Source: an uncultured Bacteroidales bacterium (GTDB taxonomy: Bacteria; Bacteroidota; Bacteroidia; Bacteroidales; Paludibacteraceae). From it: a DNA stretch of 64,000 bases. The stretch's first letter is position 1; each line of letters opens with the position of its first letter. Below the pieces are notes generated by a model that made no database searches, was not told the DNA's origin, and saw nothing but the letters and a program-made list of their open reading frames with translations. The stretch spans positions 32,099 to 96,098 of the forward strand of contig ONGK01000005.1 in assembly GCA_900317345.1 (NCBI GenBank), in the 5' to 3' direction. Of this stretch, positions 19,148 to 64,000 are shown piece after piece. A program made the position numbers and the translations under genes.

Positions 19148-22100
19148 CTAACGGACTAATATCCGTCCTTCTATTGTATAAACCTTCTCCCCGCGGAGGA
19201 TGTAGATAGTACCATTAATGAGCACCTTTGTACATTGTACATCGTCACTTTGTACATCTTCAAAACCTTGGCTCTTTTTCGTAGCTGTGAATTGCGCAGT
19301 GTAGTCTGCATCTGCGGAAGCCGCCACAATAGCCGGTGACCATCCGCTGAACTCGTAGGTGTAGTTGTCGTCTTCGGCGCGTGTAGGTGCTGCACCACTA
19401 TAAGCAGGCATTGTGCCTTCTTTTACCTGCGAAGATTGCAAAACCGTATTATCCCAGTTAAGGAAACGGATAGTGTAATACTCCGGTTGCGGTGTGTCAC
19501 CGGCACAGACAGCGGTTAGAGTTAGGTTCTTTATCTCCCATGTAGCGTAAGCAGAGGCAGTACTCTTATACTTAAATGCGAATACGGTGTTTGCGCCAAC
19601 CATCGACACTGGGACATTAATCGTCACATTAACAAATGTCCAGTTAGTGTTACTTGCGTATGGTGAGATAGTCAGTTGTTGCCACTGCGAGGCTGCTACG
19701 CTGCCTTTGTAATCGGGCGTCACCCACAAAGTGAGTTCGTCAGAAGGATTGCTTGCATAGCGGTGCGCGTGGTTGAAGGCGAGAGTGACAGTCTGCATGC
19801 CGTTCAGGTTCTTTGCAGGGGTCATCAGGTAAGCAGTATAGCCGCCTTGCTTCTTACCTACAGCACCGTAACTGCTGTTATAAGTCCATACAGACGTATT
19901 GTCTGTTGTGATTTCTCCCAAGCCGCTTCCGCCGGTCTGCAGCCAACTACCGCTGACATTCTCGCATTCAGAAACCGTTTTCTGAGTTGCCCTGTATTGA
20001 GCCGTGTAGGTGGTATTGGCGGTTGCAGGAACAATCACCGGATACCAGCCACTGAACTCATACGTGTACGTATCATCCTCCGGGCGCACAGGAGTGGTGC
20101 CTGTATATACGGGCGTTTCTCCTTCAAGAACCTGCGAGGACTGGAGTTCTGTACCATCGTAATTGACAAAAGTGATGGTATAGTAAGTGTCGCTTTCAAC
20201 GGTGACGACGCATGAAGCGGACAGACTGCCTGCATAGGCCGTGATACGCGCCGAGCCCTTTCTAATGGCCGTAACCAGCCCTGTATTCCGATCAACCGTA
20301 GCAAAAGAGGGCTTGTTGCTTGTCCATGTAACCGCCGGCAGGAGCGCATTAGCAGGCGTAGGTACAACCACCATTTGCACCGTCTCGCCCTCATAGAGGA
20401 AAACAGAGTCCTCGCTCAATGCGATAGAAGTGAGTTCCACTTCAACAGCATTTACAGTAAAGGTTACGGATGCCGTTAGCGTACCACAAGTAGCAGTTAC
20501 TGTCGCTGTTCCTGCAGCCAACGCTTCCACAACTCCATTTTCATTTACAGCCACCACGTTGGGTGCATCGGTTGACCATATTATCTCCGGCACGAACGAA
20601 GTTGCCGCAGGTTCTGTGGTGACGGTAAGCTTATTCACATCTCCGACTTCTACAACATGTTCGTAGTTCTCGTTGATAGCCATGCTTGTCGGGTTATATT
20701 GCAGAACCGTATAATTGCGTTGCGCGGATATACCGTTGTATTTGGGATTGGTAACGGTGACCGTGGCAGTTCCTTCTCCCACACATTGTACGACAGCCAG
20801 CGATGCACGATACGTATTACCGGAATAGACAAGCGTGGTATCGTCCTTGTAGGATGCGATTGTCAACACCGACTCATCGCTACTCTGCCATGCAAACGGC
20901 GCATAGGAAAGAGGTTGGGTTGTATATGCGCCCACGATATATTCCCAGTTAAGGGTATATTTGGCATTTGCGTCCTTTCCTTCTAGCCATTCCGCATCTC
21001 CTATGCGACGAGATTTGAGGACTGCCGGATAGTAATTATTTATGTTCGGTATTTTGATATTCAATGTGCATTTCTTGGCATAGTTGCCATCTTCGGTAGT
21101 CGCAGTAATAACAACCGTAGTGGTATAGCTGATAATACCCACGCGCACAAAGCCGTTTTCATCTACCGGCGCAATAGTCGGTTTGTTGGTAGACCAAGTA
21201 ATATTCTGATTGGCTGCATCTTCCGGTATAACGGAAGCATGCAATTGAATACTATCGCCAATCATGATATCTACGCTCGTTTCTTGCAGCGTGATGCCGG
21301 TTACTGTTATCGGTTCAGGACTATTTTCTACATTTGGGTGGAAGAGACGCAGGAACGGATAGCCGTCATTGATGGAGTCATTGCGTCCCCAGACAGTAGT
21401 GAAGTCCCAACCGGTGTAGTTGCTCATTGTGTGCAAGGAGAAGGAACTCTTTGCCGACGAGTCTGTGCCCGGTTCAGCCACCATTTCTCTATCGTAATAA
21501 ACAGAGGTAGCTGCTTTTGCCACACGTGTGTGCGATGCACTATAGCAGTTGGTAAACGTGATCGTGTTGCCGCTATTATCCGGTCCGACCAAACCGCCAC
21601 CTTTGAGGGCATAGGGGTATTTGACAGACGGGTATTGCGCAATGTTCACACGCGAATAACAATTGGTCATAGTCAGCGTATTCAACCTTGCTCCGGCTAA
21701 TCCGCCCGCGTAACCGTCATACCAAGCACTTGTGCCGGCTTCATTATCAAAAGCAATAATCTGACCTTCCGCGAAACAAGTCTCTATGCTACAGCCATTG
21801 ATTCGACCGGCTATCATACCTACGTGAGAGGCGTTTTGCGTGGCTGCGTTACATTTGGTAAAGAGCCATTCTCCCGGATGATTACGTCCGTCTATCACAG
21901 AAGCCTTGATTCCCAGATTACGAATAATCGCTCCTGCACCCACACTTCCGAACAAGCCCCAACCATATTTACCTCCGTAAACATCCGCCGGAGCAGCGTT
22001 TAACTCACAGTACAGACCATAAATGATGTGTCCGTTACCATCAAATGTGCCGAGAAAATCCGTTCCGTCCTCATCTGCACTTGGTTGTCCTATTGGCTTC

Positions 22101-32862: not shown

Positions 32863-34410
32863 ATGAATAGAATACTTTGGGTGGACGATGAGATAGATTT
32901 GTTGCAGCCTTATATCATTTATCTAAAAGGTAAAGGATATAATGTGGAGACGGCGAGCAACGGTGAAGACGCATTGGACGCCTTGGATACGATTGTGCCG
33001 GATATCGTTTTCCTGGATGAGAATATGCCGGGTATGACGGGTTTGGAGACGCTGCAGGAAATAAAGCGTCTACACCCGGATGTGCCCGTAGTGATGATTA
33101 CCAAAAGCGAAGAAGAGCATATTATGGAACAGGCGATAGGGGAGAAGATTGCGGATTACCTCATCAAACCTGTCAACCCCAGTCAAATACTCCTTTGCCT
33201 CAAGAAGCATATACACCAGCAGGCGATTGTCACCGAGCAGGTGCAGCAGAACTATCGTCAGGAATGGAGCGATATCTCCTATATGATAGATACAGCCACA
33301 ACTATCGAAGAATGGCAAGCCATCGAGCGAACGCTCAGCCGCTGGGATATAGAATTGGAAAATTCGCCTATGCGCTCACTCATTGATGATCAGCGCACAC
33401 AGGCAAACGCTGCCTTCGCCAAATGGATTGCTAAAAACTATGAGACATGGTTTGCTAACGGGCAGAAGATAGCAGCCAATAGTCCGCTGATGTCGCAAGA
33501 TATTATGAAGCATGCGGTCTTCCCGTTGCTTGATAAGGGAGAAAAAGTGCTGCTGTGTGTCATTGATAATTTCCGTTATGACCAATGGAAAGCCATTCAG
33601 CCGCTGCTCAGCGATTTCTATACCATACAGACGGAGGAGCAATACACCTCTATTCTTCCTACGGCCACGCAATATGCCCGAAATGCTATTTTCTCCGGGC
33701 TGATGCCCCTGCAGATACAGCAGATGTTCCCGCAATACTGGGTGGAAGAAGGCGATGAGGAGAGCAAGAATCAATATGAGAAGGAACTCGTTCAAACACT
33801 GCTTGACCGGTATCGCAGGCGTGAGAGTTTTAACTACTGGAAAGTGAATGAGAGCGATTTCTGCGAGCGGGTTATTGCGCAGTTGAAAGGAGTTCATACA
33901 CCTCTTAACATCGTTGTTCTCAATTTTATTGATATGCTCTCACACTCCCGTACGGAGAGTAAGATGATGCGGGAGTTGGCCAATGATGAGTCTGCGTACC
34001 GTAGCTTGACACTTAGTTGGTTCAAGCACTCGCCGACCTACGAACTGATGCACCGTGCCGCAGAACTGGGCTTTACGCTTGTGCTCACCACTGACCATGG
34101 CACTACACGTGTGAAGAACCCCGTACAGATTGTTGCGGATAAGAATACGAATACCAATATCCGATACAAAGTGGGCAAGGCACTTAATTGCAGTTCTAAA
34201 AACGTGATGATGATAGAGCAGCCGAAGCGTGTCGGACTGCCCTCTCCCAATGTGAGCAGCAGTTATGCGTTTTGTACGGGCAATGATTTCTTCGCCTATC
34301 CGAACCAGTTTAATTACTATGCGCAGTACTACCGCAATACCTTCCAGCACGGTGGCATATCGCTGGAGGAAATGATAGTTCCGTTGATTACCCTGATACC
34401 GAAGAAATGA
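32863..34410 (+). CDS. porX: response regulator with PglZ (alkaline-phosphatase superfamily) domain, PorX-like T9SS regulator
   Basis: 515 aa. Receiver ILWVDDEIDLL...DIVFLDENMPGMTG...IKP. C-terminal PglZ blocks FIDMLSH and VLTTDHGT. Length and architecture match PorX. Confidence 0.8.
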   Translation: MNRILWVDDEIDLLQPYIIYLKGKGYNVETASNGEDALDALDTIVPDIVFLDENMPGMTGLETLQEIKRLHPDVPVVMITKSEEEHIMEQAIGEKIADYLIKPVNPSQILLCLKKHIHQQAIVTEQVQQNYRQEWSDISYMIDTATTIEEWQAIERTLSRWDIELENSPMRSLIDDQRTQANAAFAKWIAKNYETWFANGQKIAANSPLMSQDIMKHAVFPLLDKGEKVLLCVIDNFRYDQWKAIQPLLSDFYTIQTEEQYTSILPTATQYARNAIFSGLMPLQIQQMFPQYWVEEGDEESKNQYEKELVQTLLDRYRRRESFNYWKVNESDFCERVIAQLKGVHTPLNIVVLNFIDMLSHSRTESKMMRELANDESAYRSLTLSWFKHSPTYELMHRAAELGFTLVLTTDHGTTRVKNPVQIVADKNTNTNIRYKVGKALNCSSKNVMMIEQPKRVGLPSPNVSSSYAFCTGNDFFAYPNQFNYYAQYYRNTFQHGGISLEEMIVPLITLIPKK

Positions 34411-35683: not shown

Positions 35684-37288
35684 TTATTTTACCGCAGTAC
35701 CGGAGATCTGATTGCCCACGGTGGACATAGCGCAACGGAAACCAATCTTAGCTGAAGCTTGGTCTTGGTCAAGGAAACGACGGGTAGACGGATTGAGCCA
35801 GTAGATACGGTCAGCCCATGAACCGCCTTTGTACACGCGGGTCTTCTTTGTAATACGCGGAGCAAGAACATCCGTCGGGTCGGTCTTAACCTCAGACAGA
35901 TTCTCGATACCGGTGGTATCCAACGGATAATCTGTCTCGAACAGACTTGCGAAATCGCCGTCCAGAACATCTCGTTTGTCATCCTCTTTGCCCCAACTGA
36001 TTTGGATGCAACCAACGGAATCCAATACATACTGGCCGTCTTCGCCCAATACAGGATGGCTGTAGATATTACCACGATAAGAGTTGTACTCGCTCGTCTC
36101 TTGAGCGGTGGTCTCGCGATATACATCCATTACCCATTCGTTCACGTTGCCGGCCATGTTGTATAGACCGAAATCGTTCGGAGCAAACTCATCCACAGGG
36201 TTGGTGATGACGTGACGGTCGTTGAGCGCACCGCTCACACCCATCATGTCGCCGCGGCCGCGAACAAAGTTGGCCTGCATCTGACCAAGGTTCTTCTTCG
36301 ACATGTCACGAGGATGAAAACCACTCCAAGGATATACCTTGCCCTCGATGGTCAAACCGTCTTCTCCGGCTACAGGAGCATAGGCTGCGAACTCCCACTC
36401 GGCCTCTGTCGGCAGGCGGTAGCCTGTCACTAAGATACCGTCAGCGCGGTTCACCTTGCGCTCTTCTCCATAGCTGTCGAATTTCGGACGACGGCCATAC
36501 TCAGGTACATATCTGTCATCCATTAAGTATTTCTCTGTGTTGAATACAAAGCGGTCACGAATCCACTCATAGCTCGGACGATACATCGTTACCGTCTGCT
36601 CGGGGTCCTCAGGACTTACCTCTTCGTACGAGAACATCTCGTAACCCGTCTCTTGCTCCCATTCATCTTTGTACGCCTCATCGTCCGTTGGCTGCAGGTC
36701 AGCAAACGGCGGCACTGCGATGGCACCGGCCTTAATCAGAGCCAACTCATTCACACGGTCAGTACGCCACTGGCAATATGCCATTGCCTGCTCCCAGGTC
36801 ACACCTACAATCGGATAGAAGGAGAATGCGGGGTGATCGAAATAGTTGTCCTCATATGGGTCATTGTATGCCAATGCCTCACGCCATACGGTATGGTCAG
36901 GACGAGCCTTGGCTACCAACTCCGGAGCTACGGGACCGAAGACTACCTCAAGCCAATGGAGATATTCGTTCCAGTTCAGGTTAGTCACCTCATACTTATC
37001 CATATAGAACGAACTAACGGTAATGGTTCGAACATCGTTATTACGCGGAGCGGTGAGGAACTCATCTTTCTCACCTACCGTAAACGAACCGCCCTGAATA
37101 GGAATCATACCTGTCGGACTAACATTACCCACGCCTTCGTTAGCTTGGAAATTCGTAGTACGTTGATCGAAATAATTCCAACCGGTGGTGTTGCTCACTT
37201 TGGTATTCAATTCGCGTTGTTGGCACGACATCGCAAATGCAGCCACCGATACAATTAACAAATACTTTACTGTTTTTTTCATATTCAT
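35684..37288 (-). CDS. SUMF1/FGE-domain lipoprotein, GldJ-like (gliding/T9SS-associated)
   Basis: Lipobox AFAMSC. N-terminal TGWNYFDQRT...GMIPIQGGSFTVG and C-terminal RVYKGGSWAD...FRCA match the formylglycine-generating-enzyme fold of the GldJ/GldK families. There is no porLMN neighbourhood, so GldJ-like is favoured. Confidence 0.55.
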   Translation of the reverse strand: MNMKKTVKYLLIVSVAAFAMSCQQRELNTKVSNTTGWNYFDQRTTNFQANEGVGNVSPTGMIPIQGGSFTVGEKDEFLTAPRNNDVRTITVSSFYMDKYEVTNLNWNEYLHWLEVVFGPVAPELVAKARPDHTVWREALAYNDPYEDNYFDHPAFSFYPIVGVTWEQAMAYCQWRTDRVNELALIKAGAIAVPPFADLQPTDDEAYKDEWEQETGYEMFSYEEVSPEDPEQTVTMYRPSYEWIRDRFVFNTEKYLMDDRYVPEYGRRPKFDSYGEERKVNRADGILVTGYRLPTEAEWEFAAYAPVAGEDGLTIEGKVYPWSGFHPRDMSKKNLGQMQANFVRGRGDMMGVSGALNDRHVITNPVDEFAPNDFGLYNMAGNVNEWVMDVYRETTAQETSEYNSYRGNIYSHPVLGEDGQYVLDSVGCIQISWGKEDDKRDVLDGDFASLFETDYPLDTTGIENLSEVKTDPTDVLAPRITKKTRVYKGGSWADRIYWLNPSTRRFLDQDQASAKIGFRCAMSTVGNQISGTAVK

Positions 37289-42149: not shown

Positions 42150-43661
42150 ATGAAACGTTTCATGCTTGTTGTGGCGGTCTTGACTTGTACCGTTGTGTTG
42201 TCGGCAGGGGAAATAACCTATACGCCCGATAACACCACTATCTTTAAGAATCCCGAGCGCGGATTCACTGAAGAACTCAATGGTAAAGTGACAGTGAAAA
42301 GTCCTTATCGAGTGAAAAATCATATCGACAGTAATTGGGGAAAGAGGGATTGCATGACGATGCCTGTGGTGTTGTATAATTTTGGCAATTTCAAGAGTCA
42401 GGATTTGCCGTCAGAGATTCTAAATGGCTTTGACGAAGATATGCAGGAGCTACGTAACCTCGGCTTGAAATGCGTGCTTCGTTTTGCATATACAGAGCGC
42501 GAAAGTGACATAGTAGATGCGACACCGGATTGGGTAAAACGCCATCTGGAGCAATTGAAATCTCACCTTGCCGCTAATGCTGATGTTATTTATGTATTGG
42601 AGGCGGGGTTTGTAGGAGTTTGGGGAGAATGGTATTATTCCCAGAACTACGGCAATGAGACGCAGCATGTGACGGCCAATAGACGGAAAGTAATTCAATA
42701 CCTGTTTGCCAATACCCCGGCAGATATGTTTATCCTCTTCCGCTACCCGATGATTCAGCAAGAGTATCTAAATGACGTGACACCGCTGACACCTACGGAG
42801 GGATTCAGTGGAACGGAGAAAGCACGTATGGGATGTCACAACGATGCATTCTTGCATAACTGGGGCAATATGGGAACATATGCTAGTGATGATAAGGATG
42901 ATGATCCGGCCATGCGTCAGTACGTTGCCGCTCAGACACTATATGTGCCAAACGGTGGAGAGACGAATATTGATGACGATGATGCGCTGGCTCAGCAGCG
43001 TTATACCCAGGCTCCATCGGAGATGGCAACCTACCACTGGTCGTTCTGTGGCTCCACATATGCAGAGCCTGTTACAAATCGCTGGCGTAGTAGCGGGTTA
43101 TTTGATACCCTGAATATCCATATGGGCTATCGTTATAATCTTCTTGACGCCCAATTCAGCGATGAGGCAGCGCCCGCTGGTAAGATGAATGTCACCATCC
43201 GCGTGCGCAATGTGGGGTACGCACCCATATATAACGAACGCACAGCGTATATCGTGCTCCAGAGTAGCACAAAGACCTATAAACTGCCGCTGGCTTCCGA
43301 CCCGAGACGATGGCTTCCCAATGGGGTGATAACATGGATTAATGAGCAGGTCGATATCCCTTCTGATGTACCGGAGGGCACGTATCACTTATACCTCTAT
43401 ATGCCCGATAAATATTCGTCCATTGCTGCTGACCCGCGTTATGCCGTGCGATTTGCTAATGTCAGTGTGTGGGATGCCAACACCGGTTATAATGACTTAG
43501 GAACCACGGTCACAATATCTAATTCGGCACCGCTTAATCCCGGTCCGCTTCCAGAAGGACTGGAAGAGACGGAGCAGGCCCAATTAAAGCCGAAAAAAGT
43601 CGTTGAAAACGGAATTTTTTATATCCTTATGCCCAATGGAAAGAAATACTATTGTATTTGA
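42150..43661 (+). CDS. secreted DUF4874/DUF4832-like putative glycoside hydrolase with short C-terminal tail
   Basis: 503 aa. Signal peptide, then NPERGF, GFVGVWGEWYYS and GCHNDAF blocks typical of the DUF4874+DUF4832 pair. It ends ...KKVVENGIFYILMPNGKKYYCI. Confidence 0.6.
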   Translation: MKRFMLVVAVLTCTVVLSAGEITYTPDNTTIFKNPERGFTEELNGKVTVKSPYRVKNHIDSNWGKRDCMTMPVVLYNFGNFKSQDLPSEILNGFDEDMQELRNLGLKCVLRFAYTERESDIVDATPDWVKRHLEQLKSHLAANADVIYVLEAGFVGVWGEWYYSQNYGNETQHVTANRRKVIQYLFANTPADMFILFRYPMIQQEYLNDVTPLTPTEGFSGTEKARMGCHNDAFLHNWGNMGTYASDDKDDDPAMRQYVAAQTLYVPNGGETNIDDDDALAQQRYTQAPSEMATYHWSFCGSTYAEPVTNRWRSSGLFDTLNIHMGYRYNLLDAQFSDEAAPAGKMNVTIRVRNVGYAPIYNERTAYIVLQSSTKTYKLPLASDPRRWLPNGVITWINEQVDIPSDVPEGTYHLYLYMPDKYSSIAADPRYAVRFANVSVWDANTGYNDLGTTVTISNSAPLNPGPLPEGLEETEQAQLKPKKVVENGIFYILMPNGKKYYCI

Positions 43662-51166: not shown

Positions 51167-53524
51167 GTGAAAAAAATCGCTTTCATAGTACTCTTCGTAG
51201 CAGCGGCGCTTCATGCGTCAGCTGCTACGTGGTATGTGCGTACAGACGGACAGGACGGCAATGACGGCAAGTCCTGGGAGAACGCGCAGGCGTCTATCCG
51301 TCTGGGCATAGATAACTGTCGCGTGGGCGACACGCTGCGCATAGAGGAGGGTACGTATTATGAAGGCATCATCCTCAAGGAGGGAATAACGATTATCGGC
51401 GAAGGACAGGTTATCCTCGATGGTACCGGCCTGAATACGCGTCTTATCTCCTGTGTCGCTGATTGCAAACGGCCTACGCGTATCGAGCATATCACCCTGC
51501 AGAATGCCCGTCATAACCAGCGAGGCGGAGCAGCGTGGCTGCGTGGAAAGGTCGTCATGCGGCATTGCGTCATTCGCGGATGCAGCGGTTTGCAGTGCGG
51601 AGGTGTGCTTATCAAAGGTGACCTGCCGGAAGCCTCAGCACTCGGTGCACGACTCGAAGATTGTCTCATTTACAACTGCTCGGCTACGGGGCATGACTGG
51701 CCCGATGCAGGCGGAGTGGCGAACTTCGATGGTGTACTGAGGAATTGCATCATCGCTAATAACTATGGAGATCGATACGGAGGTATCCACTCCGAGAGTT
51801 CGGTCTATAGTTGTACCATGTGGGGAAACAAGTCCGAGTATGGCTTTGTGGACCCATCCAATTATGTCTCGGATGAGAGCACGTCCGGCATGAGCCGCGC
51901 GGACGAAGGTTTCGAAGACCATTTCTTTGCGAAACCCTGGCTGGACGCGAATAACGAAGCGGAGAACGGTCCGCATTTCCGTGACCCATCAACGTTTGTC
52001 GGGGTGCCCATTACCGATGCGGAGCAGGCTATCATGCTGGCAGCCGACTATACCATCGGCGCGCCGACGCACCGAATCGCCTCCATGCCGCCTGCTTCAC
52101 CGCGCGACTATGCCCCAACGAATCTTGTCAAGATACCTGAACCCTTACCCTATACAGTTCCTTCTTTCATCGGTCATCTCCTAGACAATACAGCACCGCT
52201 CGTGCCGAGAGAGCAACCCTATTGCATGGTGGCTACCATCAATGGTGACCCCAAGACCCGAATGGGCTTCTGCTGGTTTACCAACGAAGGTGTCACAAAC
52301 GGCGAAGTGCAAATCATTGCTAAAGCCAATGCTACAGAAGAGGACTTTAATCGTGAAATCTCAAATCACAAATCACAAATCACAAATGTCGTAGCCACCG
52401 CAACGACCACTCCGCCATTGCACTACGCCATCTCCTCTTCGGGTATTCTGAAGAAGGCGAAGATAGATAAAAGCACCGCTTTCCGCTATGTTAGCCATAA
52501 AGCGCTGGCTCAGAACCTCACGCCCGGAACGGATTATTCCTATCGCGTCGGCTATGAGGGACATTGGAGCGAGATAGGCCATTTCCGCACCGCGGATGCA
52601 GAGCAGGGCGAATTTTCCTTCATCTACATGACCGATAGTCATATACAAGATAAGGAATACGTGGATGAGGCGCGCTTGTGTGCGGATGCGGTCGCGCGTA
52701 ATGAGCGCAAAGCACGCTTCTGTGTCTTCCCGGGCGACTTTGTCGATACCGGTACGGACAATAACTCCGAATGGGAATGGGAGCGCTGGTTCGAAGAAGC
52801 GCTTAAGCCCGTTATTATGGCGATGCCGATTGTTCCGACCGATGGTAACCATGACGACAGCCCGCTGCTTAACTATTCCTATCATTTCAATACCGATACC
52901 ACATTTAATTTAGAGACGAAAATCCGTCCGCAGTTTGCGGGCATCAACTATAGTTTCTGCTATGGAAATATGCAACTCATTGCATTCTCCATGCAGGATT
53001 TCTGGCGAGGAGAATATAACTATACTTCCGGCACCTCGGAGTTCCTCACGCGCGATTTGGGCGGTTGGTTCAAACGGCAAGTGGCGGCAGCGCCGGATGC
53101 TACATGGCGTGTAGGCTTGGTGCATAAGAATCTCTTCTCCGGCTCTGACCATCAGCGCGATAAAGAGACCCCGCTGCTTCGTGCTACCATGTTGCCGCTG
53201 ATGAAGGAGTGTAATATCAATCTTGTCCTGCAGGGTCATGATCATTGCTATGAAGTCATCGGTCCCGTGGACTCTACGCTCTATTTCATTGGTGCTACGT
53301 GTGGCGCGAAACGCTATACACCGCTCACGCGCGAAGAGATGGACGCATCCAAGCATATCCACCATGTGGAGAACTATTTCGACCTCTTCTCGCATCTCGC
53401 GCAACCCGGCGCACCGAGTTATACCCGCGTGACTGTGAAGAAAAACCAGCTGTTGCTCGAGACCTTCAAGGTCCTTCCCAACGGCCAAACAGAATTGTTT
53501 AACACCATTTATCTAAATAAATAA
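51167..53524 (+). CDS. secreted beta-helix + purple-acid-phosphatase-like metallophosphoesterase (paralog P1)
   Basis: GTG start with signal peptide MKKIAFIVLFVAAALHASA. Beta-helix opening TWYVRTDGQDGNDGKSWENA plus C..NC/NN repeats. Metallophosphoesterase motifs MTDSH, PGDFV, TDGNHD, GLVHKN, QGHDHCYE. Confidence 0.8.
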   Translation: MKKIAFIVLFVAAALHASAATWYVRTDGQDGNDGKSWENAQASIRLGIDNCRVGDTLRIEEGTYYEGIILKEGITIIGEGQVILDGTGLNTRLISCVADCKRPTRIEHITLQNARHNQRGGAAWLRGKVVMRHCVIRGCSGLQCGGVLIKGDLPEASALGARLEDCLIYNCSATGHDWPDAGGVANFDGVLRNCIIANNYGDRYGGIHSESSVYSCTMWGNKSEYGFVDPSNYVSDESTSGMSRADEGFEDHFFAKPWLDANNEAENGPHFRDPSTFVGVPITDAEQAIMLAADYTIGAPTHRIASMPPASPRDYAPTNLVKIPEPLPYTVPSFIGHLLDNTAPLVPREQPYCMVATINGDPKTRMGFCWFTNEGVTNGEVQIIAKANATEEDFNREISNHKSQITNVVATATTTPPLHYAISSSGILKKAKIDKSTAFRYVSHKALAQNLTPGTDYSYRVGYEGHWSEIGHFRTADAEQGEFSFIYMTDSHIQDKEYVDEARLCADAVARNERKARFCVFPGDFVDTGTDNNSEWEWERWFEEALKPVIMAMPIVPTDGNHDDSPLLNYSYHFNTDTTFNLETKIRPQFAGINYSFCYGNMQLIAFSMQDFWRGEYNYTSGTSEFLTRDLGGWFKRQVAAAPDATWRVGLVHKNLFSGSDHQRDKETPLLRATMLPLMKECNINLVLQGHDHCYEVIGPVDSTLYFIGATCGAKRYTPLTREEMDASKHIHHVENYFDLFSHLAQPGAPSYTRVTVKKNQLLLETFKVLPNGQTELFNTIYLNK
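52356..52387 (+). repeat. heptanucleotide repeat (AAATCAC) inside P1 coding sequence
   Basis: AAATCTC AAATCAC AAATCAC AAATCAC AAAT: three perfect units, one degenerate unit and a partial unit. It encodes ISNHKSQIT, which is absent from paralogs P2 and P3. Confidence 0.9.
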
Positions 53525-53538
53525 AAACACGTATTGTT

Positions 53539-55305
53539 ATGAAAAAGAAATTCTATTATCTGTTGATGCTTGTATGCTGCATCTGTCTTGTAGCTTGTGA
53601 GAAACCGGTTGAACCCCAACCAGGACCGGGACCGGATCCGGAACCGGGACCCGACACAACAGCCGTTGTGCCAAAGACAGAGTGGGAGAAAGCCGATTCT
53701 GCGTATACGGAGCATGACTACACGATTCCGAGCCACACAGCCCTTAAACTGGCTATCCATGTTTGTGCTGCCAACCCGACCGAGGAGAATCTGGAGGCGA
53801 TGCGCCAAAAGATCACGGAGTTGCAGCCCAAAGAGATGCCTTACTGCATGGTAGCTACGATTAACGGTGACCCGCAGACGCGTATGGGTTTTGCTTGGTT
53901 CACGAATGATAGCATCTTTGATGGCGAGGTGCAGATTGTTGCTATGAAGGATGCTACGGAAGAGGACTTCAACGGAGGAAACGTGACGACGATAAAAGCG
54001 GAAGCAACTCGCACCAAGAAAGCGCTGCGTTATGTCGGTCAGTGCTCGTATATCTATACGAAGGCTGACCTATCGGCTGGAACCAAATATTTCTATGTCA
54101 GCCATAAGGCGCTGGCGGAGAATCTGACACCGGGCACCGACTATTCTTGGCGTGTGGGATATGGCGACTATTGGAGCCCGATTGCCCAATTCCGTACAGA
54201 GGATGCCGCGCAGGGTGAGTACTCGTTCATCGTTATGTCCGATAGTCATATCATGAACAAGGAATATGTGGATTATGCACGTCGTTGTGCCTTAGCGGCT
54301 GTCAAGACCGTGCCGGATGCACGCTTCTGCTGTTTCCCCGGCGACTTCGTGGAGGATGGCACACTGGCGAACTCCGAATGGGAGTGGGAGCGCTGGTTTG
54401 AGGAGTCGATGGAGCCTATCATCAAAAGGATGCCTATTGTGCCTACAGATGGTAACCATGACGACAGCCCGAATATCAACTATACCTACCATTTCAATAC
54501 AGATAGATCGTTCAACGAACTTACTACCAAGCCGCAATTCGAGGGAATTACCTATAGTTTCGTCTATGGTGATGCACTCTTCCTCGTCTTCTCTATGCAG
54601 GATTTCTGGCGCTTGGATTATAGCTATGTGGACTGGAATTCAGCTTATCTGACCGATTATCTGGGATATTGGTTCCGTCGGGAAACAAGCAAAAACCCGA
54701 ATACCAAGTATCGTATCTCGCTTGCGCACTTCAACCTCTTCTCCGGTTCCGATCACTCGACCGATGAAGAGCCGCCTTTGTTCCGTGCTTGTATGCTGCC
54801 GGTCTTCAAGGATTGCGAGATTGATGTTGCGCTCCAAGGACACGATCATACTTATGAGGTTATAGGTCCGGTTAATCCCGATAGTCTCACACCTATTCTC
54901 TCCGCTATTTCTGATCGTCAGCAAGTTGCAGGTGGTTCGGAGAAGAACATGACAGGATATGAGGGAGGTACATATCGCACGGACGATGGTACGTTCTATT
55001 TCATCGGCGCTACCTGTGGCCGTAAACGCTATTCTCCGCACAGCCGTGAGCGGATGGAGAGAGAATATACGGATGACCCGGATGTGTTGAGAGATGGCAA
55101 ACATCATAACGTGAAGAACTATTTCGACCTCTTCACCGGTATGTTCGGTCAGCCCGGTAATCCTTGCTTCACCAAAATCACGGTGAAGGATGACTGCCTC
55201 GAGTTCAACTCGTATACAGCGGATGATGATCGCGGCAATGTGTCTTTGCTCAACACTATGCGTGTTGTCCGCACCAAAGACCACTCTATCCCGATGCTGC
55301 AATAA
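53539..55305 (+). CDS. lipoprotein purple-acid-phosphatase-like metallophosphoesterase (paralog P2)
   Basis: Lipobox CLVAC followed by the Pro/Gly linker PQPGPGPDPEPGPD. Same core as P1 and P3 (MSDSH, PGDFV, TDGNHD, QGHDHTYE). No beta-helix and no C-terminal tail. Confidence 0.8.
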   Translation: MKKKFYYLLMLVCCICLVACEKPVEPQPGPGPDPEPGPDTTAVVPKTEWEKADSAYTEHDYTIPSHTALKLAIHVCAANPTEENLEAMRQKITELQPKEMPYCMVATINGDPQTRMGFAWFTNDSIFDGEVQIVAMKDATEEDFNGGNVTTIKAEATRTKKALRYVGQCSYIYTKADLSAGTKYFYVSHKALAENLTPGTDYSWRVGYGDYWSPIAQFRTEDAAQGEYSFIVMSDSHIMNKEYVDYARRCALAAVKTVPDARFCCFPGDFVEDGTLANSEWEWERWFEESMEPIIKRMPIVPTDGNHDDSPNINYTYHFNTDRSFNELTTKPQFEGITYSFVYGDALFLVFSMQDFWRLDYSYVDWNSAYLTDYLGYWFRRETSKNPNTKYRISLAHFNLFSGSDHSTDEEPPLFRACMLPVFKDCEIDVALQGHDHTYEVIGPVNPDSLTPILSAISDRQQVAGGSEKNMTGYEGGTYRTDDGTFYFIGATCGRKRYSPHSRERMEREYTDDPDVLRDGKHHNVKNYFDLFTGMFGQPGNPCFTKITVKDDCLEFNSYTADDDRGNVSLLNTMRVVRTKDHSIPMLQ

Positions 55306-55324
55306 TCCTTTAAATATAATTATT

Positions 55325-58300
55325 ATGAAACGATTCTTATTTCTCTTGACTCTCGCTACAGCCGTGCTGTGCGCGAATGCAGCTAATCATTACGTTAGCC
55401 AGACTAATGGTAATGATAGTAATGATGGTTTGTCTTGGGAAACAGCCATGCAAACTATCACCGCAGGATTTAGTGCCTGCTCGGATGGTGACACGCTGTT
55501 TATAGCCGCAGGCACATACGGCGAGCGTGTAACGGTTAAAAGCGGTTCGTTTGTCTCTATGATGGGAGGCTACGAAGCTGCAACAGGTATGCGTGACCCC
55601 GAGGTGTTCAAAACCATTATGGATGGTTCGGAGCTCGGCAAAATCTTAATCAAAGCAGAAGCAGAACCGACTATCCCGCTGCTCTATGATGGCTTGATTT
55701 TGCAGAACGCGGAATACTCGTCAAACGGTGCCGGGGTGTATATGCGCGGTAATATGACGGTCAATAACTGTATCATCCGTAATTGCAATTCGCAAGGTGG
55801 CGGAGGTGGTATCTATGTCGATATCGCGGATAAAACCTTGCCTACTGCTATCAGCAACTGCTTGATAGAGTTGTGTACGTCTAATGGTTCCGGTGGTGCT
55901 ATTCATAATACCGGTGCGCTCATTGAGAATTGTATTATTCGCGGTTGCTCCGGTACGTATGGTTCTATCGTTCTCCGTAATGGAGGTGTTGTACGCAACT
56001 GTGTGTTGTATAATAACACGGGCGGTGATAGCTGGCCTAACTCGGGCGGTATATATAATCCGGACGGTATGGTGGTCAATTGTACGTTTGCGAATAACGC
56101 CGGTGCTAAATATGCCGGAATCCACTCTGATAACAGAGTATTCAACTCTGTCATGTGGGGAAACAGAGGCGAAGAGGGTTTTGCCGACCCTGCCAACTAT
56201 ATTGCAGGTGCTCCGTCCAGCAATAATATAGCCGATCAGGGTTTTAACAGCGAGTCATTCGTAAGTCTCTCGCTCAACGAAGATAATAATGCAGTAGACG
56301 GTCCGCATTTCGTGGCGCCGACCAATTTTGTCGGTGTTCCTCAAAATGCTGCTCAGATAGCCATTATGCAAGCCGCAGACTGGTCTATCGAAGCGGGTTC
56401 GTTCCTCATTGACAAAGGTTTGGCATCGCAGGCTCCGGAAACGGATATCAACGGCGTGGTTCGTCCTAAAGGCGACGGAGTGGACGTTGGTGCGTATGAG
56501 TATGACCCCAATGCACCCGTCATTCCTTTGCAGGGATTCAATATCTATCAGGATTCTGTCTTTATCAATGTAGAGAGCATGGAGGCCTTAAGTGTGCTAT
56601 TCACGCCGCGCAACGCAACGAATAGAACGCTGAATTGGGTAAGCGATAATCCTGCTATTGCTACGGTAGATAATCATGGAACAGTGGTCGGCGTTGCAGA
56701 AGGACAGACCATCATCCGCGCAACAAGCGTAGATGGAGGGTTCACCGATACCGTGGTAGCAGTCATCTCTCCCAAACCACCGGTTTACTATCCCGTAGAG
56801 GTTTTGGCTGCTGACTCGCTCTATCCGATGGAGAACTACACGGTGCCTTCCTTCATTCCATTCTTGGTAGCCAAAGAGGCTGCGCGTATCGATAGCTTCT
56901 CTGCTACGCCGGAGGAAATAGCTTCTATCGCAGGTAAGCTTGAGGTGATGTACGCTGAAGCAGCGAAATTGGTGAGCAAGGAAGAACCGTATAACATGGT
57001 GGCTACGTTCAACGGCAACCCGCGTACACATATGGGCTTTGCATGGTTCACCAATGAAGGCATTACCGAAGGAAAAGTGCAAATCATAGCGAAAGAATAT
57101 GCCACAGCAGCGGACTTCGAGGGTGACCAAGTGCTCACATTGAATGCGGTAGCTACCACAACGGTGCCGTTGCGCTATGCTGTTTCCACGTCCGGTCTGC
57201 CTAAAGCGACGCGCTTGTCGCCTAAGACGGCCTTCACCTATGTCAGCCACAAGGCACTGGCTACGAATCTTATGCCGGGTACCGCCTATTGCTGGCGTGT
57301 GGGATATGAAGGGCACTGGAGCAAGATTGGCCATTTCCGCACACAAAATGCAGCGCAAGGCGAATATTCCTTCATCTATATGTCCGATAGCCACATCCAG
57401 GATGCTGAGTATGTGGAGAATGCTAAATGGTGCGCCACCACGGCTGCCAATACGGTGCCGGAAGCACGCTTCTGTCTCTTCCCGGGCGACTTTGTAGAAA
57501 CAGGAACCGACAATAACTCCGAGTGGGAATGGGAGCGTTGGTTTGAGGAATCTATCAAACCTGTTATCATGAAGATGCCGATTGTGCCGACCGATGGTAA
57601 CCACGATGATAGCCCACTGCTCAACTACGATTACCATTTCAATACCGATTGGGGATTTGCTAACGCTGCGCAGACCAAACCGCAGTTCAAGGGTATTACC
57701 TATAGTTTCGTCTATGGCGATGTGCTCTTCCTCGTGTATTCGCTCCAAGACTGGTGGCGCGCACATGGTAGTAGTGAAACGGGCATGACTTCGACCTATC
57801 TGTCAACGGATGTGAAAAACTGGTTCCTCGAGCAGTGCGCTGCTCACCCGAATACCAAGTATCGTGTCACGCTGTCGCATAAGAATATCTTCTCCGGTTC
57901 CGGTCACTCTGTAGATGGTGAGATACCGATGTTCCGTGAAATTATGTTGCCGATTCTCAAGGAGTGCGAGATAGACCTCGCTATCCAGGGACACGACCAC
58001 TGCTATGAGGTTATCGGTCCGGTGGACTGGGATAGCCAAACCGTTGTGGAAGGCTCTGTAGCGAATGTGGTGGATACCATTGTTGACACCAATACCAATA
58101 TAAACGGCAAGTGGGGTGGCGAGTTCACCACGGATGATGGTACCATGTATTTCATCGGTGCTACCTGCGGACGCAAACGCTACTATCCGTACAGCCGTCA
58201 GAAGATGGAGGAGAAATACACCACCGATCCGGAATTGTTGTTCGATGGAAGTCACCACAATGTGAAGGATTATTTCGATCTCTTTACCGGTTTGTTCGGT

Positions 58301-58576
58301 CAGCCTGGGGCTCCCTCTTTCTCCAAGTTCACGGTGAAGAATGATGGCATCGAGGTGAATTCCTATACTGCTTCCGCAAGCGGAAAAGCAACTCTTATCA
58401 ATACCATGAAGGTAAAGCGCACCAAACCGCATACCGTTCCGTATCTTGGTATTAACGAAGTAGAGGTGCAGATGAAAGAAGGCGAGAAATTCATCCGCAA
58501 CGGACAGATGTTCATCCTTAAGAATGGACAGATATACAACGTCCTTGGCCAGAGGGTAGAGAAAATGGAACAATAA
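55325..58576 (+). CDS. secreted beta-helix (choice-of-anchor-Q-like) + Big_2 + metallophosphoesterase + C-terminal tail (paralog P3)
   Basis: Track ORF 55190-58576 trimmed to ATG 55325 (MKRFLFLLTLATAVLCANA). HYVSQTNGNDSNDGLSWETA, ...DINGVVRPKGDGVDVGAYEYD, Big_2 (NWVSDNPAIATVDNHGTVVGVAEGQT). Core motifs MSDSH/PGDFV/TDGNHD/QGHDHCYE. Tail ...KFIRNGQMFILKNGQIYNVLGQRV. Confidence 0.8.
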   Translation: MKRFLFLLTLATAVLCANAANHYVSQTNGNDSNDGLSWETAMQTITAGFSACSDGDTLFIAAGTYGERVTVKSGSFVSMMGGYEAATGMRDPEVFKTIMDGSELGKILIKAEAEPTIPLLYDGLILQNAEYSSNGAGVYMRGNMTVNNCIIRNCNSQGGGGGIYVDIADKTLPTAISNCLIELCTSNGSGGAIHNTGALIENCIIRGCSGTYGSIVLRNGGVVRNCVLYNNTGGDSWPNSGGIYNPDGMVVNCTFANNAGAKYAGIHSDNRVFNSVMWGNRGEEGFADPANYIAGAPSSNNIADQGFNSESFVSLSLNEDNNAVDGPHFVAPTNFVGVPQNAAQIAIMQAADWSIEAGSFLIDKGLASQAPETDINGVVRPKGDGVDVGAYEYDPNAPVIPLQGFNIYQDSVFINVESMEALSVLFTPRNATNRTLNWVSDNPAIATVDNHGTVVGVAEGQTIIRATSVDGGFTDTVVAVISPKPPVYYPVEVLAADSLYPMENYTVPSFIPFLVAKEAARIDSFSATPEEIASIAGKLEVMYAEAAKLVSKEEPYNMVATFNGNPRTHMGFAWFTNEGITEGKVQIIAKEYATAADFEGDQVLTLNAVATTTVPLRYAVSTSGLPKATRLSPKTAFTYVSHKALATNLMPGTAYCWRVGYEGHWSKIGHFRTQNAAQGEYSFIYMSDSHIQDAEYVENAKWCATTAANTVPEARFCLFPGDFVETGTDNNSEWEWERWFEESIKPVIMKMPIVPTDGNHDDSPLLNYDYHFNTDWGFANAAQTKPQFKGITYSFVYGDVLFLVYSLQDWWRAHGSSETGMTSTYLSTDVKNWFLEQCAAHPNTKYRVTLSHKNIFSGSGHSVDGEIPMFREIMLPILKECEIDLAIQGHDHCYEVIGPVDWDSQTVVEGSVANVVDTIVDTNTNINGKWGGEFTTDDGTMYFIGATCGRKRYYPYSRQKMEEKYTTDPELLFDGSHHNVKDYFDLFTGLFGQPGAPSFSKFTVKNDGIEVNSYTASASGKATLINTMKVKRTKPHTVPYLGINEVEVQMKEGEKFIRNGQMFILKNGQIYNVLGQRVEKMEQ

Positions 58577-58595: not shown

Positions 58596-60743
58596 ATGAA
58601 AAGGTTATTTTCATTTTTCGCTGCAATGCTGGTGGCGTTCGTAGCGAATGCAGCGGTCATTAATATCAATACCAATACCCCCGATGCACTCCGTAAGGCG
58701 CTGGCCGGTGCTGCCAGCGGTGATATTATTGTTATGGCTGCCGGAACATATGTAGAATCCAACGGCGATTATATTGCTTTCACCGGCAAGGAGGTAACGG
58801 TGATGGCGGAACCGGGCGCGGAAGTTATTGTTGTGCCCCAAGTGCCGGTTCGTTTGAAATCCGGTGCACGCGCAGAGTTCATCAATATCAAGTTTGACTG
58901 TGGTCATATTAAGGACAAAGGCTCGTACACTGAGATTATTGTGCCGGCTGATGGCACAGCCAATAAACGCGTAATCCTCGATGGATGTGAGTTCTACGGC
59001 TGGAAGCAGAAAGATTATGCCATTGTTCACACCCGCACGGATCGTCAGTTGGATACGCTGGTTATCAATAACTGCTATTTCCACGACAACCTGTATAATT
59101 GTGTATGGCTGAGATATCCAAGTATCGCTTGCTTGCGCATTACCAATTCCACTTTTACCAACGTCGCTACGGATGCAGCCGCACCTTCAATCGGTGTGAT
59201 TCAAGTCGATGCTACGAGTGGAGATATGCTCATCGACCATTGTACGTTCTACAACTGTGAAGCGAAGAATACCGACTATGGCGCCATTAAGATACCGGGC
59301 GGAGCTCCGATTGTTTCCAATTGTATCTTTGCTATGCCGGAGGAGTATGCTAACGGCCGCGCTATCCATAATGCAGCCGGAGAGGTTAAAAACTGCCTCA
59401 CCTTCAACTACACATCTGATGAGAACACCGGTATCCATTCCGGTCCTACCATCACTGCTTGCCTCCAGGCTAATCCGCTCTTCGTGGATGCTCCTAACGG
59501 AGACTTGCGTATTCAGGGTGGTTCTCCGGCGTTAGGAGCAGGCACGGAAGGATCTGACCTCGGTGACCCGCGCTGGATTCCGCAGATGGAGTATTATCTC
59601 GCGGGAAGTATGACCGAATGGGGACCTGATCCGTTGTATAAACTGGTGAAGAATCCGGAGAATGAAGAGGAGTATATGATTGCCAAAACGTTTTATGCCG
59701 GCGACCAGTTTAAGATTGCCAAGTCCGATGGTTTGACTATCGCGAATACAGACTGGTATCCATCCGGCATGGACAACAACTATCAGATTACTGCTTCCGG
59801 CAACTATACCGTATATTTCCGTCCGGACGGACAAGGCGGCGAAGGATGGCACGAAGGCTATATCTATGCGCAAGCAGAGAGTTTAGGTCCGTGGGACAGT
59901 TGGTTTGGCGATGCAAGCATGCAGCAGGAGACCAATTCGTATCTCGCTTATGATCCTATCGCTGAGAAAGTCACGGTCTTCATCCGTAATGACAAGAACG
60001 GACAATGGCAGGCGCAGGTGAAATACCAAGGTATGCCTGCTGAGGCGGATAAATGCTATCATGTGGCCCTCAAGATGAAGTCAAACCATGATATCACCGG
60101 CATCACCCTCAAATGGCAGGACGACAATAATACGCCGAATGTGATTTATGAGAACCAGTCCATCAGCCTCGCTGAGGACGAAGAGTTTATCTATGATGCC
60201 GTAGTAGCAGGAGTGGTAGGAGAGAAGGGTAGCAATGGTATCCTTGTTCTTGACTTCGGTTTCGCCCACAACGGCGATATCATTGAGGTCTATGGTGTGA
60301 CTATTGAAGAAACAGCATGTCCTGCTCCTCCGATTTACTACCTCGTGGGTTCGATGACCGACTGGGCAGCAGAAGCGGAATACCTCTTTGCGGAGAACCC
60401 GGAAACGGAAGGCGAATACTTCCTTACCACCACTCTCGCCGTAGGCGATGCTATCAAAGTGGTGGGTGTTCAGGATGATGACGAGACCTATTATCCGAAT
60501 GGTTTGAGCAATGAGTATGTAGTGGACGCTGCGCATGCAGGGGAGACCATCGTTTACTTCCGTCCTGCCGGCAATGCGGAATGGGCTGCGTTTGGCGGTT
60601 ACTTCTTCATCCCGGATAACGGACAGGGAATTGAGGATGTCAATATCGATACCAAAGCCACAAAGCTTATCCGCAATGGACAGCTCTTCATTCGTAAGAA
60701 TGGTAAGATTTATAACGTTATCGGGCAGCAAATCGCCCGATAA
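58596..60743 (+). CDS. secreted beta-helix protein with CBM-like modules and C-terminal tail
   Basis: 715 aa. Signal peptide. The N-terminal roughly 300 aa look beta-helical (GTYVESNGDYIAF, DHCTFYNC, NCIF, ANPLFVDAPNGDLRIQGGSPALGAG). Two YYL(A/V)GSMT.W modules flank a CBM4/9-like domain. Tail KLIRNGQLFIRKNGKIYNVIGQQIAR. Confidence 0.7.
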   Translation: MKRLFSFFAAMLVAFVANAAVININTNTPDALRKALAGAASGDIIVMAAGTYVESNGDYIAFTGKEVTVMAEPGAEVIVVPQVPVRLKSGARAEFINIKFDCGHIKDKGSYTEIIVPADGTANKRVILDGCEFYGWKQKDYAIVHTRTDRQLDTLVINNCYFHDNLYNCVWLRYPSIACLRITNSTFTNVATDAAAPSIGVIQVDATSGDMLIDHCTFYNCEAKNTDYGAIKIPGGAPIVSNCIFAMPEEYANGRAIHNAAGEVKNCLTFNYTSDENTGIHSGPTITACLQANPLFVDAPNGDLRIQGGSPALGAGTEGSDLGDPRWIPQMEYYLAGSMTEWGPDPLYKLVKNPENEEEYMIAKTFYAGDQFKIAKSDGLTIANTDWYPSGMDNNYQITASGNYTVYFRPDGQGGEGWHEGYIYAQAESLGPWDSWFGDASMQQETNSYLAYDPIAEKVTVFIRNDKNGQWQAQVKYQGMPAEADKCYHVALKMKSNHDITGITLKWQDDNNTPNVIYENQSISLAEDEEFIYDAVVAGVVGEKGSNGILVLDFGFAHNGDIIEVYGVTIEETACPAPPIYYLVGSMTDWAAEAEYLFAENPETEGEYFLTTTLAVGDAIKVVGVQDDDETYYPNGLSNEYVVDAAHAGETIVYFRPAGNAEWAAFGGYFFIPDNGQGIEDVNIDTKATKLIRNGQLFIRKNGKIYNVIGQQIAR

Positions 60744-63800: not shown

Positions 63801-64000
63801 TCCGTATCAAGACAACTGTTGCCGGAAACATCTATGTTAAGTTCTCCGATACCGGTTCAAAAGCAAGTGAGACAGCCGTTAAACGCTACTTGATGGTTAA
63901 TGGTGATTCCACAGAGTATTGGGCTTCTCGTGAGAAAACAGGTGAAGGTGCTTATACTGCACAACTCAATGTAGAAACAGGCGCAATCCATGTTCCTGCA
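60881..64000 (+). CDS. large secreted beta-helix/CBM protein, paralog of 58596-60743, 3' end beyond window
   Basis: The frame is open from ATG 60881 to the window edge (1040 codons, hand-translated). It is absent from the ORF track because there is no stop. MRKIFSFFAAMLIAFVANAATINIDNTTPDALRLALGNAADGDEIVMAAGTYVESNGDYIAF... parallels the neighbouring gene. It also has the Pro linker PAAPVPPTPQP, a hexosaminidase-C-like block AAIYYTLDGTEPTAASTQY, and a YYLVGSMNNW module. Confidence 0.75.
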   Translation, partial: MRKIFSFFAAMLIAFVANAATINIDNTTPDALRLALGNAADGDEIVMAAGTYVESNGDYIAFAGKHVIVRAADDAAVTIQPQVPITVSAGGWAHFVNIKFDASRLTELADWYEHLIYAADDDESNTIVLDGCEFYNFTLNKSMLYCSTANRLGGVAIRDCYFHDLMKSILFVENISADIEVVVTNSTFANISTNTESYWAGIIDLRNPASRLLVDHCTFYNVIPMNTDYSCVSKITLADGITSNCIFMLPTAQDNIRAMRGVAATNCITYNYLKDSGTGIHSSVTQTNCVQADPLFVDAANGNFTLGEGSPALTMNDGAPIGDPRWWPAAPVPPTPQPVEVSWDWSKASYSSASESSVVWSGDDVTLTLAKGTSQTAANNYLGGTGSYNHTRVYQNQTLTFAPAEGVTIESIEITATSNDYAGKFKNSTWTNASASTSGSTVTITPVDGASAVVCTITAATRATEVKVTYLKGEAPAVAKPAIAGEEFFYDTTLVTITCATEGAAIYYTLDGTEPTAASTQYTAAFNLTASATIKAIAILGDDASAVAEKTFTKNPSFASFEALIAAGVADKTLIEVSFEKLVIDSFYVSTSNNVSTNKGIYFTINGVAYEIYKGSAAIDASWEIGGKVSGTIRGEWQHYVSTQKGIDIWEVIPSASDWTWAALTYAAPVEGCDWDNIEFLGGPAEYANQFKVCKAGAQPNVANIQVAPWADNNVGIYVNFPDAVIGEISLPEGQYKVEGAGVLLYLSAFTAKETEFTMQWQDGVYTLTVLNVNGTDPVVGEKKYYLVGSMNNWTPGLTDVFGQNPGSEGEYMAKATLAVGDEFKVIGITSGVLNPDTAWYPGGTNNNYIVDADHAGAAKNIYFRPDGQGGEGWHHGVIFVEPNPAPQDALKAVSDSTTWNFSKLTQNTESSLYNSSDDAIKLSGETTPSTADELIYANYDSLWTIAAEFDGEAIAFTGQYPIRKNQFCQNGVLRIKTTVAGNIYVKFSDTGSKASETAVKRYLMVNGDSTEYWASREKTGEGAYTAQLNVETGAIHVPA

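Follow-up and report, generated by a model that had tools for sequence, protein, structure and literature searches.

A stretch of 64,000 nucleotides (the window) from an uncultured Bacteroidales bacterium of the family Paludibacteraceae (assembly GCA_900317345.1, contig ONGK01000005.1, positions 32,099 to 96,098 of the forward strand) encodes four proteins that end with the same short C-terminal tail, and the question raised by this locus is what such a tail is for. A preliminary description of the window had listed the four copies and their common pattern, and the copies were confirmed as listed, each at the 3' end of one of four open reading frames (ORFs; Table 1). We propose that the tail, termed mini-tail in the following, is probably a minimal and family-restricted variant of the C-terminal signal of type IX secretion systems (T9SS), by which the canonical C-terminal domain (CTD) has largely been displaced within the genus.

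Mini-tail, carrier proteins and taxonomic range

A hidden Markov model (HMM) was built from the four window tails and compared with 12,373 stop-to-stop ORFs of at least 60 residues from the genome to which the window belongs (1.96 Mb on 77 contigs, 96% complete, 49.6% G+C). It matched 66 ORFs at an independent E-value of 0.01 or below, and the number was stable at 81 after three iterations. The distance between the profile match and the stop codon is 0-12 residues in all 81 ORFs. If the same profile was run against the reversed ORFs of this genome, no match was obtained even at E≤1.

The profile of the 81 tails reads P-[TQE]-[GA]-[ILV]-[ED]-[ND]-[VIT]-x4-K-A-x-K-[VI]-[LI]-R-[ND]-G-Q-[LIV]-[YVF]-I-x-[RK]-x-G-K-x-[YF]-[NTD]-h-x-G-Q-x-[VIL]-[KRQ]. 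The consensus given previously was thereby found to be essentially right, with one of the four window copies (43554-43661) being an atypical form that stops early. Nearly invariant positions are K23, G28, I32, [RK]34, [YF]39 and G43, of which K23, G28, I32, [YF]39 and G43 each occur in 75-80 of the 81 tails. In the opening motif Pro is present in 32 of 81 tails, followed by Thr, Gln or Glu (66/81), Gly or Ala (62/81), Ile, Leu, Val or Phe (71/81) and Glu or Asp (60/81). Counted from the putative cleavage site in this motif to the stop codon the modal length is 37-38 residues (range 29-48). The last Gly is followed by exactly four residues in 51 of 81 tails, and the final residue is Lys or Arg in 48 of 81. 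Five tail genes (on contigs C61, C43 and C6, and two on C68) continue past the usual terminus with the extra ending V-E-[SN]-R-K, a recurrent four-residue extension.

A DNA repeat or a mobile cassette was considered as the source of the common pattern and rejected. Between genes the identity of the tail DNA does not exceed 80%, and the flanking sequences are unrelated, which indicates that the peptide is what is conserved, rather than a DNA repeat.

According to a heuristic detection, nearly all carriers that are not cut by a contig end possess a Sec signal peptide (MKK-hydrophobic-A), mostly of the signal peptidase I type, and a lipobox was found on few of them. A random sample of 20 carriers other than those in the window contained members of the glycoside hydrolase (GH) families GH16, GH32 and GH13, a subtilase, an S28/S37-like peptidase, BspA-type leucine-rich repeat (LRR) proteins, InlB B-repeat, fn3 and β-helix proteins, and seven proteins without a Pfam domain. 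These types are typical T9SS cargo. In none of the 20 sampled carriers did a Pfam domain extend over the tail.

The nearest methionyl-tRNA synthetase genes (88-92% identity) belong to metagenome-assembled genomes (MAGs) from the rumen labeled Paludibacteraceae or Bacteroidales (Tb.RUG.376, RUG454 and goat RGIG bins). For the analysis of the taxonomic range an alignment of 73 tails (A1) was used. The mini-tail is present in 24 out of 24 sampled genomes of the same genus with 11-102 matches each, and in 14 out of 33 sampled genera of the Paludibacteraceae with 1-15 copies of the same discrete form. In 301 Bacteroidales genomes from approximately 150 families, of which approximately 297 lie outside the Paludibacteraceae, the tail was found outside the family in two genomes only, with one C-terminal copy each. 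These two genes (loci L193 and L194, in genomes G278 of family f134 and G223 of family f79) have a 7-8-residue extension after the tail, their genomes encode PorU, and they may represent horizontal acquisitions. Transitional forms were sought in other genera and families and none was found, the tails there having the same discrete form. Of 1.84 billion public protein cluster representatives, the profile matches 20,632 at E≤0.001, a number that falls to 1,817 at E≤1e-10; in the best 150 matches the tail is located at or within a few residues of the protein end in all but two short entries.

None of the domain models in Pfam or NCBIfam accounts for this sequence. The libraries used were Pfam-A (2025) and NCBIfam 20.0. 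The four isolated tails gave no match in either library at E up to 10 beyond chance level (FlgE/FlgF, DUF2058), and neither the tails nor the four whole proteins matched TIGR04183, PF18962 or the type B CTD model TIGR04131. In the window genome TIGR04183 occurs at 12 sites (8 above cut-off) and PF18962 at 3, all on other proteins with canonical C-termini of 65-105 residues, one of them being PorU. On the mini-tails of this genome no match to either model was obtained even at E 0.01-10. The earlier view that the tail is distinct from the canonical type A CTD and approximately half as long was thus corroborated. A literature search on the tail in RF16 or the Paludibacteraceae yielded no paper describing it.

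One might still argue that the mini-tails are ordinary Por_Secre_tail domains that score poorly, or that errors in gene calling have removed the end of a CTD. In a profile-profile comparison the N-terminal half of the long CTDs from the same genome is weakly similar to the mini-tail (P 0.003), which could be read in this way. However, a length of 37-38 residues from site to stop recurs in the 81 genes, in every congener searched and in the 20,632 public representatives, nearly always at the protein end, the stop codons lie at a fixed distance, and the type A models are silent on the tail. We therefore regard this explanation as highly improbable.

Secretion machinery and exchange with canonical CTDs

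One line of argument is provided by orthologues. The catalytic part of a GH16 carrier (contig C39) was searched across the family. In the genus of the window genome it is followed by approximately 50 further residues that end in the mini-tail in all five genomes with a match (A1 HMM, E 5e-11 to 6e-20). The orthologues from 12 other genera (43-54% identity) continue from the same point into a long or medium type A CTD. An example of the long form is ...YPNPSTDFF...VINLAGAVIY...WPKGTYIAKI...RKMLKN, with the pattern YPNP...GxY...KhhK, and the medium form, such as GMEDLCSTQKGIDELAGSIYNINGLLVRTFNAGESSVIGNLKEGIYIIQLENGESFKIIKKK, comprises 56-67 residues. A C-terminal extension is missing from three orthologues, which belong to two of the genera searched. 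The mini-tail replaces a T9SS CTD at the same position in the GH16 orthologues. For the DUF4832 protein of the window, orthologues with a Por_Secre_tail were absent among the best 120 listed, all of which are close Paludibacteraceae orthologues with mini-tails.

A further hint towards an exchangeable module arises from the window itself. Three tandem metallophosphoesterase paralogues (51167-58576) represent three targeting types, namely a signal peptide alone (P1), a lipobox (P2) and a signal peptide combined with the mini-tail (P3). P2 ends with ...KDHSIPMLQ at the exact point where the tail of P3 begins, P3 running with ...KPHTVPYL/GINEV into its tail (the slash marks this point). The comparison of the three paralogues indicates that the tail is a module which starts at the [GA]-[ILV]-[ED] motif and is exchangeable with other solutions for surface targeting.

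The machinery for such a signal is encoded. A T9SS had previously been considered probable in view of PorX and a GldJ-like protein in the window, and its presence is borne out by the genome, which contains SprA (2642 bits), PorV (433 bits; contig C63:49258-50400), PorU, PorP, PorQ, PorX and the GldJ-like protein; both window genes were recovered as named, the latter below the curated cut-off (Table 1). PorV, PorU and SprA are single and conserved. Almost without exception the complete carriers of the tail are proteins with signal peptides, and PorU is present in all 11 tail-bearing genomes checked, the two outside the family included. With regard to the function suggested at that time, a minimal or novel tag for sorting, anchoring or quality control, the minimal or novel sorting tag is supported by these observations, while nothing supports the quality-control option. 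The scale (81 genes in one genome and more than 20,000 protein clusters), the precedent in Prevotella intermedia and the orthologue evidence for the replacement of the CTD go beyond the preliminary description.

Type A CTDs are not absent from tail-bearing lineages. They occur in 121 out of 121 genomes of the family, and the window genome possesses three CTD classes: long (approximately 10, with 9-12 TIGR04183 matches), Prevotella-like short (few) and mini (81). The numbers nevertheless shift. TIGR04183 has 8-31 matches in six genomes of the genus, the window genome included, compared to at least 43 in most other genera (50-125 candidates), and across the family sample the counts of mini-tails are inverse to those of TIGR04183.

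The Prevotella-like short CTDs (motif order B-D-E) were observed on a DUF4874/DUF4832 paralogue of the 42150-43661 gene, which ends with SGIDEVAELELDAQPYDILGRPVDDSYHGIVIMRGKKILR and is located at contig C35:20890-22938, approximately 9-11 kb upstream of the window start, and on an ORF of contig C60.

The coexistence of long, Prevotella-like short and mini forms in one genome could also mean different destinations. The mini-tail might then be the signal of another, undescribed sorting route without SprA, PorV and PorU, for example a dedicated outer-membrane exporter, vesicle loading or a different sortase-like enzyme. The discrete nature of this class of sequences, for which the searched genomes contained no transitional forms, and the failure of all CTD models to detect the tail would fit such a route. 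On the other hand, no lineage-specific partner was found; a second PorV-family gene was considered as a tail-specific PorV paralogue, that is a dedicated reader, and rejected, the gene being an ordinary PorQ. The single, conserved PorV, PorU and SprA argue in the same direction, and the simplest explanation for a swap of signals at one and the same site in orthologues is that the same machinery serves both. That a single pathway can handle short as well as long CTDs is shown by P. intermedia (Ye et al. 2025, Open Biol 15:240335, PMC11969387). A separate route thus appears unlikely to us.

Relation to known signals and weight of the evidence

The closest counterpart of the mini-tail as a T9SS signal is the “short” CTD of P. 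intermedia, which was reported for 48 out of 80 predicted T9SS cargo proteins, comprises 43-55 residues and is predicted to form a three-stranded sheet (PMC11969387). Cleavage follows the consensus PT/GI, in which Ile is conserved at position +2, and this site was confirmed by mass spectrometry for five short CTDs. According to the same authors no species besides P. intermedia is reported to possess long as well as short CTDs.

The two signals have several features in common. Both are C-terminal, occur on signal-peptide proteins of a T9SS organism next to long CTDs, stay far below the 70-90 residues of type A, and are predicted to form a single small β-sheet behind a flexible linker. The opening PT/GI motif, with a hydrophobic residue at +2 and often an acidic residue next to it, corresponds to P9-[TQE]10-[GA]11-[ILV]12-[ED]13 of the mini-tail. 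The cargo (LRR proteins, proteases, β-helix proteins, adhesins) is alike as well. They differ in length, the mini-tail having 37-38 residues from the putative site compared to 43-55, and in taxon, as the mini-tail belongs to rumen Paludibacteraceae.

The bodies of the signals differ as well. We recovered 25 Prevotella short CTDs from the genome of P. falsenii by means of one published peptide. They read PT/GI[EDN]-x10-12-IYTLSGVRL-x9-GIYIVNGKKVVK, with approximately nine residues between the last two elements, whereas the body of the mini-tail reads K-h-h-R-[ND]-G-Q-h-h-I-x-[RK]-x-G-K-x-Y-[NT]-h-x-G-Q-x-V-[KR]. An alignment of both profiles with hhalign comprises 14 columns at the opening motif (P 4.8e-5, 68% probability) and is confident nowhere else.

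With the type A CTD (TIGR04183/PF18962) the mini-tail shares its position, the kind of cargo, the interchange at the same GH16 site and the cognate machinery encoded in the genome. It is, in contrast, about half as long, has 3-4 strands instead of a seven-stranded sandwich, lacks the YPNP strand and is not matched by the HMMs. The type B CTD (TIGR04131/PF13585) is comparable in being an alternative class next to type A in one genome. Type B CTDs depend on PorP/SprF-like partners. The window genome has only one clear PorP, and no PorP/SprF-like gene is adjacent to the tail genes; type B CTDs are furthermore longer and without a sequence match to the mini-tail in the NCBIfam scans.

Among organisms a parallel is found in “Candidatus Paraporphyromonas polyenzymogenes”, work on which reportedly relied on canonical type A CTDs, an approach that would miss the mini-tail. 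This is likewise an uncultured rumen Bacteroidales bacterium, and its multi-modular carbohydrate-active enzymes include glycoside hydrolases that are exported via C-terminal T9SS signals and not as lipoproteins or by a Sus system (Naas et al. 2018, PMC5831590).

Structure prediction is in line with a reduced signal. The AlphaFold2 (AF2) model of the 60621..60743 tail (46-residue query, 73-tail alignment) reached a mean predicted local distance difference test (pLDDT) value of 82.7 and represents a small β-meander with strands at 19-24, 27-32, 35-37 and 43-44. In the model of the full-length 503-residue protein (75 orthologues, pLDDT 83.4) the enzyme ends at approximately residue 456, residues 471-478 are disordered with pLDDT below 50, and residues 482-501 form three short strands. 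The disordered segment lies just past the putative cleavage site. In AF2 the mini-tail therefore consists of three to four short strands and not of the seven-stranded β-sandwich of approximately 70-100 residues. A flexible linker followed by a small sheet is also the layout by which Ye et al validated their sites (PMC11969387). When the PDB was searched with the tail model by Foldseek, nothing under E 2.5 and no CTD-like match was returned, the model being too small to be informative.

Several observations weigh against the interpretation as a variant of the T9SS signal. The curated CTD models are all blind to the mini-tail. The A1 profile gave a best E of 0.155 in the P. falsenii genome, and conversely the Prevotella short-CTD profile retrieved from the window genome a few true short CTDs and zero mini-tails. 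If the mini-tail was compared by hhalign, locally and globally, to the Prevotella short CTDs and to the long CTDs of its own genome, scores were weak, the last hairpin (kYNxxGQxV) was placed on motif B, and neither motif D nor motif E was covered. The last strand is absent from some orthologues. In the DUF4832 orthologue group the tail is eroded: in the subfamily of the window copy it ends with ...NGKKYYC[ILF], in further members with ...LGQ, while the rest retain the full tail, and the last strand appears to be dispensable from the orthologues ending early. PorU is split in the window assembly into two overlapping frames of 206 and 925 residues (contig C63:50518-53713); in congeners it is a single ORF of 1138-1262 residues in five out of five genomes, and the split is probably a frameshift error in the MAG and less likely a strain-level pseudogene. 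Finally, the genomes behind the inverse counts and the swaps in orthologues are related, so that these patterns may go back to one evolutionary event.

The placement on the CTD motifs depends on the register, which is ambiguous because the tail is made of three similar hairpins. Besides the hhalign solution, the tail can be aligned colinearly by hand to a short CTD encoded in the same genome, which requires two one-residue indels and assigns the RNG loop to motif B and GKIYNVIGQQIAR to motifs D and E. In a third register G28...I32 and K37 fall on GxYI...NGKK. Motifs D and E were reported to be essential in P. gingivalis (PMC11969387).

The mini-tail could also be more than a type A CTD reduced in size, namely a signal class of its own that does not extend past a motif-B-like hairpin and lacks the D and E strands. 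It would then be read differently, for example by the B-loop alone in PorV or by another adaptor, possibly with another fate of the cargo, e.g. release instead of anchoring by the sortase. We regard this as doubtful. Were it true, no natural T9SS-type signal would be smaller, and the minimum needed for recognition would have to be redefined.

The fold search without a CTD match and the lack of a confident placement for motifs D and E could also be taken as hints that the tail is no export signal at all. A small β-hairpin unit, comparable to a cell-wall or choline-binding repeat or to a dockerin-like connector, might hold the protein on a glycan or a receptor after export by other means, and would not be removed. 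The pattern h-x-[ND]-G-x-h-h-I...G-K-x-Y-x-h-x-G is presumably similar to one hairpin repeat as found in glycan-binding repeat proteins, and we counted this in favor of a surface-retention module. Yet the tail is always single-copy at the extreme C-terminus and at a fixed distance to the stop codon, it takes the place of T9SS CTDs in orthologues, and it opens with a motif that resembles a sortase site and lies in a disordered linker. Moreover, among the genomes searched it occurs only in those bearing a T9SS, and no candidate receptor was seen. A binding function of this kind seems quite unlikely.

Possible mechanism, consequences and tail genes of the window

For a mini-tail acting as a variant T9SS signal the following sequence of events can be envisaged. 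The carriers would cross the inner membrane via Sec by means of their N-terminal signal peptide. The tail of approximately 38 residues may fold as a three- to four-stranded β-meander behind the flexible linker, and this meander could be the part by which a carrier is recognized for passage through the SprA translocon together with PorV. The opening P-[TQE]/[GA]-[ILV]-[ED] would most likely serve as the site for the sortase PorU. Cleavage there would take off the tail and leave the mature protein to be attached to a surface glycan or released. We infer the dependence of the carriers on the T9SS and their binding to PorV from the evidence given above; cleavage between [TQE] and [GA]-[ILV] and the attachment to the surface are suggested by analogy. 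As the signal of the cargo the mini-tail would, in the genus, have largely taken the place of the type A CTD with its 70-90 residues.

If the mini-tail is a working T9SS signal, current annotation would miss approximately nine in ten secreted cargo proteins (81 mini-tails compared to approximately 10 CTDs) in bacteria that are abundant in rumen and gut, and predictions of their secretome and of their fiber degradation would be badly incomplete. With approximately 38 residues it would be shorter than any other natural T9SS-type signal, and short CTDs would no longer be confined to P. intermedia. The question which signal parts the machinery needs could further be tested on this natural case, and a compact export tag for the engineering of Bacteroidota could be gained. 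A curated HMM of the mini-tail would be directly useful to Pfam, NCBIfam and PGAP.

The features of the window are collected in Table 1. The start of P3 is likely the MKRFLF... codon at 55325 within the ORF 55190-58576.

Table 1. Mini-tails, their carriers and related genes in the window, with coordinates counted from its first nucleotide (CBM, carbohydrate-binding module).
Feature	Position	Strand	Evidence
Mini-tail LGINEVEVQMKEGEKFIRNGQMFILKNGQIYNVLGQRVEKMEQ of the third metallophosphoesterase paralogue (P3)	58445..58576	+	Profile E 2e-13 to 2e-20
P3 cargo: signal peptide, β-helix/choice-of-anchor Q, Big_2, purple-acid-phosphatase-like metallophosphoesterase, mini-tail	55325..58576	+	Pfam and NCBIfam scans
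Mini-tail GQGIEDVNIDTKATKLIRNGQLFIRKNGKIYNVIGQQIAR, near the family consensus	60621..60743	+	Profile E 8e-21
715-residue cargo: signal peptide, right-handed β-helix/DUF5123, CBM-like repeats, mini-tail	58596..60743	+	
Mini-tail EGLEETEQAQLKPKKVVENGIFYILMPNGKKYYCI, variant with early stop, atypical form	43554..43661	+	Profile E 2e-08
503-residue cargo: signal peptide, DUF4874 and DUF4832 enzyme, mini-tail	42150..43661	+	
Mini-tail QGFEDVQSDDVQCTKVLINGTIYILRGEKVYTIEGRILVR of the giant adhesin	19148..19270	-	Profile E 2e-20
1978-residue surface protein: Big_2, Listeria-Bacteroides repeat, mini-tail	19148..25084	-	
Metallophosphoesterase paralogue P2: lipobox (LVAC), no tail	53539..55305	+	
Metallophosphoesterase paralogue P1: signal peptide, no tail	51167..53524	+	
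PorX, T9SS response regulator	32863..34410	+	NF052313, 752.7 bits (cut-off 300)
GldJ-like lipoprotein	35684..37288	-	TIGR03524, 355 bits (under the curated cut-off of 458)

A paralogue of the 715-residue β-helix/CBM protein starts 138 bp past it (60881-64000) and stays open for 1040 residues up to the end of the window, beyond which the contig continues for approximately 690 bases.

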